DNA from: a phage
Assembly: GCA_027217645.1 (NCBI GenBank)
Contig: GCA_027217645.1_4344.1
Length of the DNA stretch: 41,360 nt
Reading direction: 5' to 3' (one strand)
A program made the translations under genes and the position numbers. Shown here piece after piece: positions 3,107 to 41,360 of this stretch (position 1 is the first letter of the stretch; the number at the start of each line of letters is the position of its first letter). Below the pieces are notes generated by a model that saw nothing but the letters and a program-made list of their open reading frames with translations, was not told the origin of the DNA and searched no databases.

Positions 3107-3282
3107 ACCAGAACCTCACATTCATCCCGATACACGAACAATAACGACCCTTTGTACTCAATCATAAAACCATAATGGTTGATGCTGAACGCCGGAAAAA
3201 CATCACCTACCGAGATACCGAAATCTATAAGCCTGCGGTCAGTTATACGGATAAGCCTGCGGTCAGTTATACGGATTCGCAT
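3103..3282 (-). CDS. Hypothetical protein containing an exact 8-residue tandem duplication
   Basis: Track ORF 3103..3291 trimmed to the ATG at 3282 (TAATG overlap with upstream stop); protein repeats IRITDRRL twice, encoded by the 24 bp tandem repeat. Confidence 0.4.
   Translation of the reverse strand: MRIRITDRRLIRITDRRLIDFGISVGDVFPAFSINHYGFMIEYKGSLLFVYRDECEVLV
3227..3274. repeat. Perfect 24 bp tandem duplication (2 copies)
   Basis: Seen in sequence: ATAAGCCTGCGGTCAGTTATACGG at 3227-3250 and again at 3251-3274. Confidence 0.9.
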
Positions 3283-3679: not shown

Positions 3680-3713
3680 AACCCTCACTCCTCTGTCTCG
3701 TTTCGATAAGTGA

Positions 3714-3742
3714 ATAGTACCCTATTATGTTGGGGTGTGCAA
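3714..3742 (-). promoter_or_regulatory. Sigma70-like promoter, TTGCAC-N17-TACTAT class, for the leftward early operon
   Basis: Seen in sequence: minus-strand -35 TTGCAC (3737-3742), 17 nt spacer, -10 TACTAT (3714-3719); contains box AATAGTACCCTATT (3713-3726); near-identical to the promoter at 25940-25968. Confidence 0.55.
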
Positions 3743-3961
3743 GAGATTAGTTACGTTGCCGTTGTGATTCTTTAGTTTAATGGGATAGCGAGCGAAACGA
3801 AACGAACGTGGTGCCGAAGGCACCAAGAGTGAGTGAGTGAGCTTGCGGATATAACCTACGGCAAATCAGTAACTTAGATATTTAGGCTGGAATTACAATA
3901 GACTTTGGGCCTCCCAAACGCGCTAGCGAGCCTCACTCCACACGCTACACGTGCTCGTTTC

Positions 3962-4042
3962 GCCTGCCGCGCGCCGCGGTCGCTTGTTCATACTTCACAA
4001 GCTCAGGCTGAGCTTACCATATTTCTTAGTAAAAGTCAATAC
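3962..4042 (+). repeat. Copy A of an ~80 bp dispersed non-coding element (copy B at 34562-34643)
   Basis: Seen in sequence: 38 bp identical core CGCGCCGCGGTCGCTTGTTCATACTTCACAAGCTCAGG (3970-4007 and 34569-34606) with diverged flanks; contains hairpin GCTTGT-N9-ACAAGC. Confidence 0.8.
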
Positions 4043-4146: not shown

Positions 4147-4329
4147 ATGCAACATTACATGACCCAGAATGAAGTAGCCGAGCGTATCGGGGTGACACGT
4201 CAGACAATTAATAACTGGTTGCGCAGTGGTAAATTCCCGGATTGTTGTATTAAGGTTATGGGCCGCCGTTTGCCTGGAACATTTGACCGTAATAAAGTTG
4301 AAGAGTGGATTAAGGAGAACGTGAAATGA
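4147..4329 (+). CDS. AlpA/excisionase-like helix-turn-helix DNA-binding protein
   Basis: Track ORF 4075..4329 with start at the ATG at 4147 (AGGAG RBS); MTQNEVAERIGVTRQTINNWLRSGKFP matches the AlpA-family HTH pattern. Confidence 0.6.
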   Translation: MQHYMTQNEVAERIGVTRQTINNWLRSGKFPDCCIKVMGRRLPGTFDRNKVEEWIKENVK

Positions 4330-6996: not shown

Positions 6997-7024
6997 GCAA
7001 AAAGAAAGGGGCGTTAAGCCCCTT
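6996..7024 (-). terminator. Rho-independent terminator for the XRE regulator gene
   Basis: Seen in sequence: AAGGGGC/GCCCCTT stem (7006-7012, 7018-7024) followed on the minus strand by UCUUUUUG; the hairpin overlaps the regulator stop codon. Confidence 0.55.
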
Positions 7025-7229
7025 CACCGAACACCAGCCACTTGGCGTCTACCTCTAGCACTTCCGCCAGTTTAAACAGCGTTGCTGGGCGGACGTACCG
7101 CGTTACCCCGAGTGCAAGCTGGTTAATCGCGCCCTGGGAAACACCGGACAGGACAGCCAGACGGCGTTGGGAAATGCCGAGTTCTTTACGGCGCTGTTCT
7201 ACACGGATGCCTAGTTCAGATGGTTGCAT
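7014..7229 (-). CDS. XRE-family (Cro/CI-type) helix-turn-helix transcriptional regulator
   Basis: Track ORF 71 aa; LGISQRRLAVLSGVSQGAINQL is a textbook XRE HTH; AAGGAG RBS; transcribed divergently from the promoter region carrying two palindromic boxes. Confidence 0.75.
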   Translation of the reverse strand: MQPSELGIRVEQRRKELGISQRRLAVLSGVSQGAINQLALGVTRYVRPATLFKLAEVLEVDAKWLVFGEGA

Positions 7230-7293
7230 GTCAATTACTCCTTAGCCAGTTGATATGTGAATAGTACCATATTAATTATTTTAGAAAAGCCCC

Positions 7294-7322
7294 TTGACAA
7301 GTGAATAGTTCGCTATTATAGT
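7294..7322 (+). promoter_or_regulatory. Strong sigma70-like promoter, TTGACA-N17-TATAGT class, with embedded palindromic box
   Basis: Seen in sequence: TTGACA (7294-7299), 17 nt spacer, TATAGT (7317-7322); box AATAGTTCGCTATT (7304-7317); second imperfect box AATAGTACCATATT at 7260-7273; drives the gene at 7354. Confidence 0.6.
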
Positions 7323-7353
7323 TAGCCCATACCAAACGAGAGGAGAGAAACAA

Positions 7354-8535: not shown

Positions 8536-9782
8536 TTCTTAAAGAACGCGGCGGCAATAATGATGTGCACGCCTTACTGTCGCCGTCAGGGGCTAAAAAG
8601 TGGCTAAGCTGCGCCGCATCGCTGGCCTGTGAAAAAGATATTCCTAACACATCTGGTAAAGCCGCCGTTACAGGGACCGCGTGTCACACCATAGCCGAGG
8701 TCCATTTAAATCAGTACATCAAAGGCACTGCGTTGCCGTTAGAGCGTGAAGTCGGTGCTTACGTGCTGGATGAAGGTAAAGGCCAGATTAAGGCGCTAAT
8801 CAGCCCGATGAAAGGCGCGGTACTGATTACGGCTGACATGATTGAGCAGGTGCGCAAGTACACCGACTACTGCAAAGCGATTATAGATGTAGCGACTTAC
8901 GCTAAGCTGGAAATGCGCGTCAATCTTACTGAGGTGTTGCACCCAGGCTACGAAGGCGTTGAAACGTTCGGAACTGCTGACCTTGTTGCTGTACAGGAAC
9001 TGGCAAACACCGACGAGCACATGCTCATTATTGGTGACCTGAAAACAGGACGGCATCGCGTCGAAGCGAAAGAAAACAAGCAGCTTATGCTTTACGCTCT
9101 CGGTGTTTATCGCCGACTCAAGAGACGTTATAACATCACAGTAGTGCGCCTGGTCATCTTCCAGCCGTACGCGGGGGGTGCGTCGGAGTGGGATATCTCG
9201 GTCGAAGGTCTGGAACTGTTCGCTAAGTTCGCACAGAAACGGGCACTGTTAGCGCTTGATGCTTATTTCCGTGGAAAGAAGAACCTGAAAGCGTCGGACT
9301 TTAAACCGTCGGTCGATGGTTGCCAGTGGTGCCGGTTCTCTGAACAGTGTGCCGCGCGTACAAAGACGGTTAATTCTGTACTGGCGGAAGAACTTGAAGA
9401 CGACTTTGTGCTGGAACTGACGACGGAGCAACTCGTAGTTGAGTATGAGAAGTTGCCGCTGTTGCGCCAGCACATCGACAAGGTTGAGAAAGCGATGACC
9501 GCCGCATTGCATTCCGGTAAGAAAGTGCCAGGGTACAAACTGGTAGAAGGCCGCCAGGGTAATCGTGCGTGGAAAGATGCCGATGCGATTGAAGTGTCAC
9601 ACGGCGACATTCTCAAAAAAGAGGTATTGATGACACCTACGGAGGCAGCAAAAGTTCTTTCGGCGGATGAGATGGCAGCGCTTGAGCCGTTTATTACCCG
9701 TAAGCCAGGCGCACCATGTGTCGCAACGGCAGACGACAAACGTCCTGAGTGGAATCAGGTTAGTGAAGAAGATTCGGAATAA
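8532..9782 (+). CDS. PD-(D/E)XK nuclease, Cas4/RecB-like (DUF2800-type), with C-terminal Cys cluster
   Basis: Track ORF 416 aa; GTADLVAV...IGDLKTGRH...KQLMLYALG resembles the PD-(D/E)XK core; CQWCRFSEQC suggests an Fe-S or zinc site; precedes the SSB-like and polymerase genes as in the known DUF2800-DUF2815-PolA module. Confidence 0.7.
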   Translation: MILKERGGNNDVHALLSPSGAKKWLSCAASLACEKDIPNTSGKAAVTGTACHTIAEVHLNQYIKGTALPLEREVGAYVLDEGKGQIKALISPMKGAVLITADMIEQVRKYTDYCKAIIDVATYAKLEMRVNLTEVLHPGYEGVETFGTADLVAVQELANTDEHMLIIGDLKTGRHRVEAKENKQLMLYALGVYRRLKRRYNITVVRLVIFQPYAGGASEWDISVEGLELFAKFAQKRALLALDAYFRGKKNLKASDFKPSVDGCQWCRFSEQCAARTKTVNSVLAEELEDDFVLELTTEQLVVEYEKLPLLRQHIDKVEKAMTAALHSGKKVPGYKLVEGRQGNRAWKDADAIEVSHGDILKKEVLMTPTEAAKVLSADEMAALEPFITRKPGAPCVATADDKRPEWNQVSEEDSE

Positions 9783-9786
9783 AGTG

Positions 9787-9815
9787 TTGACACCTGAATA
9801 GTTAGCTATTATAGT
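9787..9815 (+). promoter_or_regulatory. Sigma70-like promoter, TTGACA-N17-TATAGT class, with palindromic box
   Basis: Seen in sequence: TTGACA (9787-9792), 17 nt spacer, TATAGT (9810-9815); box AATAGTTAGCTATT (9797-9810); upstream of the SSB-like gene. Confidence 0.55.
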
Positions 9816-9868
9816 TCTAATCACTGGCCGGGCAGTTCCCGGAGTAAACTGAAAAGCGAGAAATCACG

Positions 9869-13091: not shown

Positions 13092-13372
13092 CTAAAGAGG
13101 GCCGCGTACAGAAATACGCAAAAGACCGATTCGAGGCCCTTGGCGGCCTCGTTCGCAAACTCTCCTACGAGGGGCGTTCCGGCGCCCCAGACCTGCTGGT
13201 AATTCTCCCCGGCGGCATAGTCTGGTTCGTCGAGGTTAAGAAAGACGAGAACACGAAGCCAGACCCGCACCAGCTACGGGAACATGAGCGGATGCGTAAA
13301 CGTGGTGCGAATGTTTTTGTCGTTGGTTCGTTTAAACAGGTTGACGACCTAATAGCTAGCTATTATAGTTAG
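13088..13372 (+). CDS. VRR-NUC domain nuclease (PD-(D/E)XK superfamily)
   Basis: Track ORF 13073..13372, start placed at the ATG at 13088 coupled to the upstream micro-ORF; GAPDLLVILPGGIVWFVEVKK fits the VRR-NUC catalytic core. Confidence 0.7.
   Translation: MTKEGRVQKYAKDRFEALGGLVRKLSYEGRSGAPDLLVILPGGIVWFVEVKKDENTKPDPHQLREHERMRKRGANVFVVGSFKQVDDLIASYYS
13341..13369 (+). promoter_or_regulatory. Sigma70-like promoter, TTGACG-N17-TATAGT, embedded in the 3' end of the VRR-NUC gene
   Basis: Seen in sequence: TTGACG (13341-13346), 17 nt spacer, TATAGT (13364-13369); contains the perfect palindrome AATAGCTAGCTATT (13351-13364), which also encodes the last residues of VRR-NUC. Confidence 0.5.
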
Positions 13373-13402
13373 TCCTACACCAACAATATAAGGAATTGAG
13401 AA

Positions 13403-15968: not shown

Positions 15969-15999
15969 AAAAGGCCCCGTTTGGGGCCTTAGTTTTATG
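15969..15999. terminator. Bidirectional rho-independent terminator between convergent operons
   Basis: Seen in sequence: GGCCCC-GTTT-GGGGCC hairpin flanked by A run on one side and T run on the other; the 31 bp AAAAGGCCCCGTTTGGGGCCTTAGTTTTATG is identical to 28397-28427; tail-fibre stop codon lies in the T tract. Confidence 0.7.
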
Positions 16000-28396: not shown

Positions 28397-28427
28397 AAAA
28401 GGCCCCGTTTGGGGCCTTAGTTTTATG
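28397..28427. terminator. Bidirectional rho-independent terminator (identical to 15969-15999)
   Basis: Seen in sequence: same 31 bp hairpin plus flanking A/T runs; the major tail gene stop codon lies in the T tract. Confidence 0.7.
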
Positions 28428-33889: not shown

Positions 33890-34153
33890 CTATTCCAGAA
33901 TATTCCTCACGTAATCCTGCAACATGAACACTTTAAGTCTCAGTTGCCGTACACATTCTGCGTTCTGGACGTCAATAGCTAAATCCTCGTCCGCGTCGTT
34001 ACTTGGCAGTGCCAGTTTGCACGGCGGCTGCATCATCGTCGTATCCGGGGATGGAATTGGCGTTTGCGACGGCGCGGGACTTGAGCTGCACGCGCTCAGG
34101 GTCAAAAGTGCACACGCTGCGGCCAGGCGTTTTAATGTACTTAACGACTTCAC
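33890..34153 (-). CDS. Outer-membrane lipoprotein spanin (Rz1-like o-spanin)
   Basis: Track ORF 87 aa; lipobox LLTLSAC after a signal peptide; Pro-rich mature part; starts inside the Rz-like gene in another frame. Confidence 0.6.
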   Translation of the reverse strand: MKSLSTLKRLAAACALLTLSACSSSPAPSQTPIPSPDTTMMQPPCKLALPSNDADEDLAIDVQNAECVRQLRLKVFMLQDYVRNILE

Positions 34154-34385
34154 GGGTGATTACCTCTGATTTCGTCTTGCCTTCGTTATCAGCGGCGGCG
34201 GCCTTCGATTCATCCTGCTGCTGCCGTTGTGTTTTCTTAGCTAACTCAGCCTGTGCTTTCTGCTGTTGCTGCGAAACGAGATTCGCCCGGCCTCCGTTCC
34301 AGCCGCTGCGATACTGGTAGATGCCGTGTGCGTAAGCCAGGATGATGAAACATGCCCCCGCTACGACAGTTGCTTTAAGATTCAT
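33999..34385 (-). CDS. Inner-membrane spanin (Rz-like i-spanin)
   Basis: Track ORF 128 aa; N-terminal transmembrane anchor then Gln/Ala/Lys-rich coiled coil; AAGGGG RBS; overlaps the o-spanin gene. Confidence 0.6.
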   Translation of the reverse strand: MNLKATVVAGACFIILAYAHGIYQYRSGWNGGRANLVSQQQQKAQAELAKKTQRQQQDESKAAAADNEGKTKSEVITREVVKYIKTPGRSVCTFDPERVQLKSRAVANANSIPGYDDDAAAVQTGTAK

Positions 34386-34561
34386 GTTTCCCCTTTCTCG
34401 ATAAGTAAAGCCCCGCCTTAAAGCGGGGCGCTAGACCTTATCATTTAAACATAGAAACGGCGTAATCTCAGTAAACCAGTTACTTTTTACACAAGCAATA
34501 GAGTATGGCCCTTCCGAACGCGTCAGCGTAACTACACTCAGGACTTACGTCCCGCTCCGTT

Positions 34562-34643
34562 ACCTGCCCGCGCCGCGGTCGCTTGTTCATACTTCACAAG
34601 CTCAGGTGGAGCTTAGCACATTTTTGGTGAAAAGTCAACTATT
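34562..34643 (+). repeat. Copy B of the ~80 bp dispersed non-coding element (copy A at 3962-4042)
   Basis: Seen in sequence: identical 38 bp core at 34569-34606; the second hairpin differs from copy A by apparently compensatory substitutions. Confidence 0.8.
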
Positions 34644-34704
34644 CGAATAGTTTATTCCAACATTTACAATTGAGTGGAATAACTGGAATAATCACAGGCA
34701 CTAA

Positions 34705-34724
34705 AAAGCCCCTTTCGGGGCTTC
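34705..34724 (-). terminator. Rho-independent terminator
   Basis: Seen in sequence: AGCCCC-TTTC-GGGGCT hairpin followed on the minus strand by UUUUU; the same hairpin recurs at 36276-36291. Confidence 0.55.
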
Positions 34725-34727
34725 AGT

Positions 34728-41338: not shown

Positions 41339-41360
41339 CTAGTCATTACAGAAAACAGAT

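Follow-up and report, generated by a model that had tools for sequence, protein, structure and literature searches.

A duplicated element, probably a promoter with a structured leader RNA, in a Kagunavirus genome: a candidate cassette for transcriptional read-through

Why should a virulent phage carry the same stretch of non-coding DNA twice, each time at the head of an operon? The question is raised by contig GCA_027217645.1_4344.1, whose 41,360 bp (the window, by which the whole stretch of DNA analysed is meant) are a complete genome of the genus Kagunavirus within the Guernseyvirinae, that is of a K1G-like virulent siphovirus of Escherichia coli with fTaEco01/03, Shashou and RP180 as its closest relatives. 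An earlier note, made from the sequence alone, had described a non-coding element in two copies, and its identical 38-bp core (CGCGCCGCGGTCGCTTGTTCATACTTCACAAGCTCAGG) was indeed present at 3970-4007 (copy A) and at 34569-34606 (copy B). The core is part of a repeat of 70 nt with 87% identity (3970-4039 and 34569-34638), beyond which a weaker similarity between the copies runs for ~100 nt more toward lower coordinates. The 21-mer hairpin GCTTGT-N9-ACAAGC reported in that note is also real and occurs exactly twice in the window, against zero occurrences expected from shuffled sequences, and a covariance model of the element (R1) made exactly two matches in the window (bit scores in Table 1) and found no third copy. 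Both copies were correctly placed in intergenic regions where operons begin. The answer put forward here, which is given a probability of roughly 0.45 as a whole, is that the element is a portable promoter-plus-leader cassette whose RNA would act in cis on its own transcript and allow read-through of terminators. One part of this answer is a good deal firmer, namely that each copy very probably consists of a minus-strand promoter followed by a structured leader RNA that is under selection.

The promoter was recognised on the minus strand of both copies, which read TTGACT-N14-TGn-TAAGCT, a sigma70 promoter with an extended -10; within the window this pattern fits nowhere but at 4011-4039 and 34610-34638, each time on the minus strand. 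In 40 homologous sequences, which had been collected by an unrelated 21-mer, the -35 hexamer TTGACT was invariant in all but one, the TG and TAAGCT were invariant and the 17-nt spacer varied. The ~35 bp that had been noted only as a less conserved half of the repeat are this promoter, with its -35, variable spacer, TG and -10. In the GenBank record of phage fBC-Eco01 the homologous 29 nt carry, independently of this analysis, the annotation of a predicted host promoter, again on this strand. In the phages FSL SP-031, VSiP, AH01 and GRNsp27 the gene upstream of the region equivalent to copy B is divergent, so that this region must supply the promoter of the spanin-capsid operon. A second hairpin, which the earlier note had taken to differ between the copies by compensatory changes, turned out to be the -10 hexamer TAAGCT(C) facing the first transcribed bases. 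Both copies share its arms AAGCTC/GAGCTT, the differences between them (CT vs TG) are one-sided and alter the loop only, and the two extra pairs of the copy-A version would leave a loop of 1 nt. Across the 40 homologues the positions read CA, AG, GT, GA or CT opposite an invariant CT; pairing is thus lost once more homologues are aligned, the very observation that the note had said would count against it.

The order of the predicted transcript is hairpin P1, a 2-nt linker GA and an irregular hairpin of ~65 nt (P2-P4), with a conserved tail (CGGAAGGGCC...CUAUUG) 3' of the long hairpin. The structure was tested on 29 pairs in 18 distinct leader variants (alignment A2, 513 cells), all of them closely related sequences from which the tested structure had itself been derived. 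It was found that 92.8% of cells pair, compared with 28-40% when the 3' partners are slid by 1-3 columns. Pairs changed on both sides were 32-89 (CG/UA), 43-78 (UA/AU/GC), 54-66 (GC/CG), 55-65 (GU/GC/UA) and 56-64 (AU/GC/UG), and the covariation score was reached by none of 500 shuffles, a control whose significance is overstated by the close kinship of the sequences. In the divergent variant L157 GUAAC/GUUAC has become GGAAC/GUUCC and P1 is kept through U.G wobbles, while P2 and P4 of copy A covary with those of other leader types and the middle helix of the A1/A2 types is in a different register. The strand was decided by 62 G.U against 12 A.C cells, by the better pairing on the minus strand (92.8% vs 83.0% on the plus), by promoter orientation and by the downstream genes, and the plus-strand assignment made previously has to be given up. 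The true helices lie at 3913-3979 and 34514-34578, mostly outside the interval in which covariation had been reported. The earlier suggestion of a structured regulatory RNA stands as regards conserved structure, real covariation and position at operon starts, and falls as regards its strand and the hairpin claimed to covary.

Which genes would be served by the two leaders depends on how the genome is joined. The K1G record was deposited as circular, and the minus-strand genes of the window can therefore be read as one co-directional array of ~17 kb, which runs leftward from ~4000 to 1, resumes at 41360 and stops at ~28400. Both copies feed this single array, which holds several intrinsic terminators, and the element belongs to its leftward operons and not to the rightward operon at 4147 with which copy A had been connected. 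In both copies the order promoter, leader, terminator-like hairpin holds: the structured part is followed by ~70 nt of less structured leader, by the hairpin (3825-3809; 34429-34410) and then by minus-strand genes. The stem of the copy-B hairpin occurs as the compensatory variants CCCAGC/GCUGGG and CCCUGC/GCAGGG among homologues, a terminator is predicted by ARNold at the homologous place, just before the spanin gene, in the fBC-Eco01 record, and in copy B the gap from terminator tail to spanin ribosome-binding site is ~10-15 nt. After copy A there come, leftward, an operator-like motif (3705-3727), small early genes of no known function, holin (916-563) and endolysin (585-97); past the wrap-around the block continues with more small genes, terminase, portal and head-morphogenesis genes. 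Copy B is bounded on one side by the terminator at 34724-34705, the end of the terS-to-Ig-like block, and on the other by the spanin genes, and heads i- and o-spanin, scaffold, major capsid and further genes through the tail tube, a stretch closed by a bidirectional terminator at 28418-28399. Besides these two, the minus-strand terminators within the array include one at 36291-36276 and one after the capsid gene.

As to the distribution of the element, the copy-B region was found in 183 records of Escherichia and Salmonella phages, with at least 95% identity in 179 of them. The 342 nt of non-coding DNA (34386-34727) are 95.9% identical to those of the Salmonella Jerseyvirus ER10, whose flanking genes (spanin, Ig-like, head-morphogenesis, portal and tail-region) are 68-86% identical and whose capsid gene could not be aligned by blastn; in this comparison the copy-B non-coding DNA is the best-conserved segment of its neighbourhood. 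Other Guernseyvirinae (Cornellvirus, phiEap-2, Hafnia TS33, Pantoea AH01) have different leaders in the same place, which form the types J1 (24 records) and J2 (13 records). These share a similar promoter (in J2 TGGACT-N14-TGA-TAACCT), a hairpin at the 5' end and a long one capped by a stable tetraloop (GUAA, UCCG, UACG), they have compensatory changes of their own (7 pairs in J1, 2 in J2), and J2 makes a weak syntenic match to R1 of 12.5 bits. More distant relatives have neither the spanin insertion nor the intergenic region. A 17-mer of the distal J-type leaders, CAATGACTTACGGCAAC, is also present in the unrelated viral contigs L296, L297 and L303 with 2-3 extra matching flanking bases; one of these matches adjoins a tRNA gene, and the whole resemblance may be due to chance.

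Copy A is much rarer and was present in only ~43 of 181 records. No copy was found at the early-left locus of K1G, which has another promoter and leader joined to the same distal leader and downstream hairpin, and in one contig (L009) an A3-type leader occupies the B locus. The difference at the K1G locus and the leader swap in L009 together indicate that a cassette from about -35 to +150 was copied from the late to the early-left locus, and that sequence passes between the two loci. A and B have unrelated terminators, which are outside the copied unit, and the hairpin of the A locus is present in K1G, which has no element there. The best reading of these sequence comparisons is that copy B would be the ancestral late promoter and leader of the Guernseyvirinae, and copy A a later copy that replaced the early-left promoter and leader in a subset of Kagunavirus. 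A search of a bacterial genome collection gave a single match, in a mis-binned 6-kb contig of a metagenome-assembled genome, and the element appears restricted to phages.

How such a cassette might work can be set out as follows. A portable minus-strand unit, an extended -10 sigma70 promoter fused to a ~108-nt structured 5' leader, would be transcribed, and the nascent leader would fold and act in cis on the RNA polymerase that made it; transcription from these promoters would then read through the terminator just downstream and the later ones, the mode being put-like processive antitermination. An action in cis on its own transcription complex seems indicated for the leader, and the analogy with put is a more tentative matter, possible and at the same time doubtful. 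It is favoured because the element travels with the promoter and not with any gene, because it precedes terminators that the essential capsid genes must pass, because two adjacent hairpins stand at the very 5' end as they do in putL (PMC9378689), and because no antiterminator protein is evident. Were the analogy to hold, the leader could be a second class of processive antiterminator RNA that evolved independently, needs no protein and acts on the RNA polymerase of E. coli/Salmonella, in the form of a movable Guernseyvirinae cassette that makes long late operons insensitive to internal terminators; this wider claim is slightly more doubtful again.

Several observations weigh against the cassette reading or parts of it. 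The start sites, the read-through and the RNA itself are predictions, and no similarity to HK022 put was detectable in either sequence or structure. Of the six positions of the -10 hexamer only three agree with the consensus, and the hexamer is dependent on its TG extension. Folding energies are unexceptional for the composition (z = -0.94 and -1.69), and the middle helix P3, with 82.6% of cells paired, is not common to the A1/A2 types. The whole intergenic region, unstructured parts included, is almost totally conserved, which points to further constraints (proteins that bind the DNA, for example) or to recent exchange. In phages of the J1/J2 types the hairpin before the spanin gene has no U tract, so a leader followed by a terminator is not universal, and K1G manages without this leader at the early-left locus, where it must accordingly be dispensable.

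RNase III sites are known in the early and late mRNAs of T7 and in the lambda N leader, and the ompA leader is a 5' protector. It is on the whole unlikely, although much would fit, that the leader serves RNA processing or stability in a similar manner, its long irregular hairpin of ~23 bp being an RNase III site or P1 protecting the late mRNA from 5'-end-dependent decay. P1 starts ~2 nt from the predicted 5' end, and ~23 bp are stacked in the second hairpin with internal loops, where a substrate of RNase III would have ~20 bp or more of coaxial helix and be cleaved. In the hairpin before the spanin gene compensatory changes are seen even in phages that lack its U tract. At the apex one stable tetraloop can stand for another (GUAA, UCCG, UACG, CUCG), so that this part would be structural and not sequence-specific. 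Processing or protection would, however, not explain why the P1 loop and the 3' tail are so strictly conserved; cleavage by RNase III is hypothetical here, and in J1 the first hairpin lies ~25 nt from the predicted start, a poor position for a 5' protector. More sequence is conserved than structure alone needs, which is a point for a leader bound by a phage or host protein that would co-regulate both lysis-gene operons by antitermination of the N/nut or another kind, by attenuation or by repression. In every leader type the apical hairpin has unpaired, purine-rich sequence on its flanks (GGAG/GAGUGUA, GGAGUGAG, and in J1 a bulged GGA), and the phage has many small early proteins without known function from which a partner might come. 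Such a protein is nevertheless rather improbable: neither N nor Q nor any other antiterminator family appeared among the scanned small proteins or the annotations, boxA is absent and the candidate CUCUAUU varies at key positions, and the promoter spacer, the place of a Q-binding element, is least conserved. It should be added that an RNase III or stability role and a protein-binding leader explain much of the same evidence as antitermination.

Three further explanations have to be considered, all of them given low probabilities. In the first of these the two copies would be genes for trans-acting small RNAs of ~200 nt, each with its promoter and terminator, like lambda 6S or StxS from PR', and read-through would be incidental. 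The terminator-like hairpin does lie ~180-205 nt downstream of the predicted +1 in both copies, and there is a precedent (PMC7547250) for short terminated transcripts from late promoters that act as small RNAs. This is very unlikely to be the case here, since the terminators of A and B are unrelated and outside the duplicated unit, K1G has the A-locus hairpin without the element, J-type phages lack the U tract and several phages have no co-directional operon upstream; moreover, no space is left for a second promoter before the spanin ribosome-binding site, so that the essential capsid genes depend on read-through. It has about as little in its favour that the promoter alone matters and the leader is a passenger, conserved through recent recombination among phages. 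These phages are mosaic, exchange of the cassette between loci is visible and many of the sequences are near-identical; but distinct leader types keep their helices through double changes, there is a G.U asymmetry, and between two genera the non-coding DNA has changed far less than what flanks it. Least probable of all is a plus-strand RNA or an element that works as DNA, whether as a protein-binding site or as a replication or packaging signal. The inverted repeat AAGCTC-N5-GAGCTT over -10 to +6 could be an operator, and the operator-like promoter motif at 3703-3737 points rightward through copy A. Against this stand the poorer plus-strand pairing given above, the lack of any plus-strand gene or promoter context for copy B, compensatory changes that argue for RNA, and the fact that no iteron or AT-rich origin features were noticed on reading both regions; a replication or packaging signal or a plain DNA-binding site, both of which had been proposed earlier, is unsupported as the main function.

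A number of known identities were also looked for. Rfam 15 gave nothing at gathering thresholds, the best matches in E-value mode reaching 11-17 bits against thresholds of at least 35 bits, a search for tRNA or tmRNA gave none, and R1 had no match in the HK022 genome at E <= 10. A nut site was rejected: boxA (CGCUCUUA-like) is absent, and the only boxA-like string, ACUCUAUU, is variable (AGUC, AUUC, AGGC, AAUC, ACUA). PHROGs scans of 20 small or regulatory open reading frames (ORFs) found no N-like protein and no Q-family protein, the latter being absent also from the Shashou and K1G annotations. A qut site was set aside, as the promoter spacer is the least conserved part and there is no conserved -10-like pause element; AAGTAT at +10 to +15 becomes AAGTGT in L044 and AGTTAT in L157. 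The element was likewise not accepted as a stand-alone small RNA gene, with terminators in A and B that are not homologous and an A-locus hairpin that pre-exists in K1G. In copy B the loop of P1 (AGUAUG) is complementary over 6 bp to CAUACU in the 3' tail, but a pseudoknot found no support: the complementarity is absent in copy A and L157, and the fifth position of the tail varies without a matching change in the loop. A riboswitch-like alternative pairing of leader and terminator fared no better, partial GC-rich complementarity being visible in B and none in A by inspection. Scans with degenerate motifs gave mostly chance matches. An ORF from the P1 loop gives 9-41 aa and is frameshifted between variants, and a small protein gene was therefore rejected. 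A hypothetical protein of ~36 aa is annotated within the leader (34480-34590, minus strand) as CPT_Shashou_007 and _056 in Shashou and as gene 09 in fBC-Eco01; since no frame is kept among the variants, they are likely to be spurious gene calls. In the literature searched the RNA element was not found described, and for transcription in Guernseyvirinae, Kagunavirus and Jerseyvirus that literature offered no more than promoter predictions and a coarse time course by RNA-seq that leaves non-coding sequence aside. The RNA is a new motif of a known general kind.

Guernseyvirinae, both K1G-like and Jersey-like, are among the most often isolated therapeutic coliphages and Salmonella phages, and the literature searched says almost nothing on their transcriptional control. 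The 342 nt of non-coding DNA at copy B are more conserved than the surrounding capsid and portal genes, and several GenBank records wrongly show part of them as a small protein. Should the leader indeed reprogram RNA polymerase, nature would offer a second case of the put mechanism, and synthetic biology would gain a compact part that joins promoter and read-through. A processing or stability element would still mark the principal late promoter and the point where the structural mRNA begins, which would be useful for engineering these phages.

The features of the two copies and their surroundings are collected in Table 1.

Table 1. Predicted features at and around the two copies of the element, with positions in the window
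Feature	Position	Strand	Basis or remark
Copy A, -35 hexamer TTGACT	4034-4039	-	Pattern match; conservation in homologues
Copy A, extended -10, TGG TAAGCT	4011-4019	-	Predicted start: G at 4004
Copy A, structured 5' leader RNA, 109 nt	3896-4004	-	R1 87.2 bits, E = 2e-18; minimum-free-energy fold
Copy A, hairpin P1, GCUUGU-GAAGUAUGA-ACAAGC, from ~+3	3982-4002	-	100% of cells pair; only changes are U.G wobbles
Copy A, long irregular hairpin: P2a/P2b, middle helix, apical P4 CACG-UGUAG-CGUG	3913-3979	-	Fold and alignment
Copy A, distal leader, including (CUCA)n microsatellite at 3826-3845	3826-3895	-	Partly homologous to copy-B distal leader
Copy A, terminator-like hairpin UGGUGCC-UUC-GGCACCA (7-bp stem, 3-nt loop) and interrupted U tract	3799-3825	-	-11.2 kcal/mol
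Operator-like motif GAATAGTnnnCTATTA, between leader-A terminator and first leftward gene (3688)	3705-3727		Repeat family D2
Copy B, -35 hexamer TTGACT	34633-34638	-	Pattern match; fBC-Eco01 annotation
Copy B, extended -10, TGC TAAGCT	34610-34618	-	Predicted start: G at 34603
Copy B, structured 5' leader RNA, 108 nt	34496-34603	-	R1 133.6 bits, E = 1.5e-29; covariation counts
Copy B, hairpin P1	34581-34601	-	Repeated 21-mer; covariation counts
Copy B, long hairpin: P2a CCG/CGG, P2b GGCGCG/CGCGUU, P3 CAG-GUAAC/GUUAC-G-CUG, P4 CGGGAC-GUAA-GUCCUG	34514-34578	-	Fold and alignment
Copy B, distal leader	34430-34495	-	Partly homologous to copy-A distal leader
Copy B, intrinsic-terminator-like hairpin GCCCCGCU-UUAA-GGCGGGGC and UUUACUUAUC, directly upstream of i-spanin ribosome-binding site	34400-34429	-	-17.2 kcal/mol
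Upstream of copy-B promoter, candidate sites of protein binding: perfect palindrome CTATTCGAATAG (34639-34650) and TTATTCC/GGAATAA repeats	34639-34692		GGAATAA repeats also upstream of J1- and J2-type promoters
Terminator closing the terS-to-Ig-like block, just before copy-B promoter	34705-34724	-	-15.5 kcal/mol

Some of these features have relatives elsewhere. The 12-bp palindrome CTATTCGAATAG abuts the -35 of copy B, and GGAATAA repeats are also present upstream of the J1- and J2-type promoters of other Guernseyvirinae; palindrome and repeats are a candidate activator or repressor site for the late promoter. In a related contig (L102:1700-1870, minus strand) the same type of promoter (TTGACTTTT-N14-TAAGCTC) stands in the opposite orientation beside the spanin gene and is followed by a different GC-rich leader. 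The IMG/VR contig L144 ends at 9600-9653 in a Nextera adapter (CTGTCTCTTATACACATCT...) directly past the copy-A promoter, an assembly artefact of the public record. The (CUCA)n repeat at 3826-3845 (minus strand), just before the terminator-like hairpin of copy A, varies from ~3 to 7 copies among relatives. The lysis genes are split, holin and endolysin (97-916) being under copy A and the spanins (33890-34385) first after copy B, ~6-7 kb further downstream in the same array. Two identical bidirectional terminators of 31 nt (AAAAGGCCCCGTTTGGGGCCTTAGTTTTATG) are found at 15969-15999 and 28397-28427, where operons converge head-on, and a perfect tandem duplication of 24 nt (ATAAGCCTGCGGTCAGTTATACGG twice) lies at 3227-3274 within a small early-left ORF.

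The operator-like motif belongs to a repeat family, TGAATAGTnnnCTATTAT on the plus strand, with members at 2405-2427, 3703-3737, 7252-7274, 7294-7328, 9787-9821 and 13341-13375. In the rightward replication operon three copies occupy the spacer of good sigma70 promoters (TTGACA-N17-TATAGT). The same consensus has been published as a phage-promoter motif found by PHIRE in fBC-Eco01 (PMC9825357). No phage RNA polymerase is listed in the annotations examined, and TGAATAGTnnnCTATTAT is probably the operator for one of two helix-turn-helix proteins (4147-4329, plus strand; 7014-7229, minus strand).

It remains to compare the element with systems that are better known. The putL and putR RNAs of HK022 are nascent, protein-independent structured RNAs of a coliphage, each with two stem-loops joined by 1-2 nt; each genome has two, placed where terminator-containing operons begin, and putL is immediately downstream of its own promoter (PMC9378689). 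Pausing and termination are suppressed by put without other factors, through the zinc-binding domain of the beta' subunit, a contact that for the present leader would be hypothetical. The element resembles them in being promoter-proximal, in its two adjacent hairpins, in its position in the predicted transcript between a sigma70 promoter and downstream terminators and in its occurrence twice per genome at the heads of such operons. It differs in its dimensions, with hairpins of 21 nt and ~65 nt joined by GA where put is an RNA of ~70 nt with two stems of ~35 nt, and in that its copies are co-directional and belong to a virulent siphovirus, whereas the put copies are divergent and belong to a temperate lambdoid phage. 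With lambda PR', 6S RNA and tR' under Q, and with StxS, it shares a host-type late promoter, a leader of ~200 nt and a terminator upstream of lysis and morphogenesis genes, but unlike the Q system it has no Q homologue that could be found, its spacer is the least conserved part and the early transcribed region contains no conserved -10-like pause element. The RNase III hairpins of T7 and 5' hairpins of the ompA type are similar in that a long irregular hairpin lies in an mRNA leader or a hairpin lies a few nt from the predicted 5' end; the present element, in contrast, is tied to a promoter and was duplicated along with it. The EAR of the Bacillus eps operon and the conAn and Tn916 systems (PMC8191782, PMC11658703) likewise combine a structured 5' leader with a long operon that has internal terminators, though they come from Gram-positive hosts and are unrelated in sequence, some need a protein partner, and no Rfam family matches the element described here.

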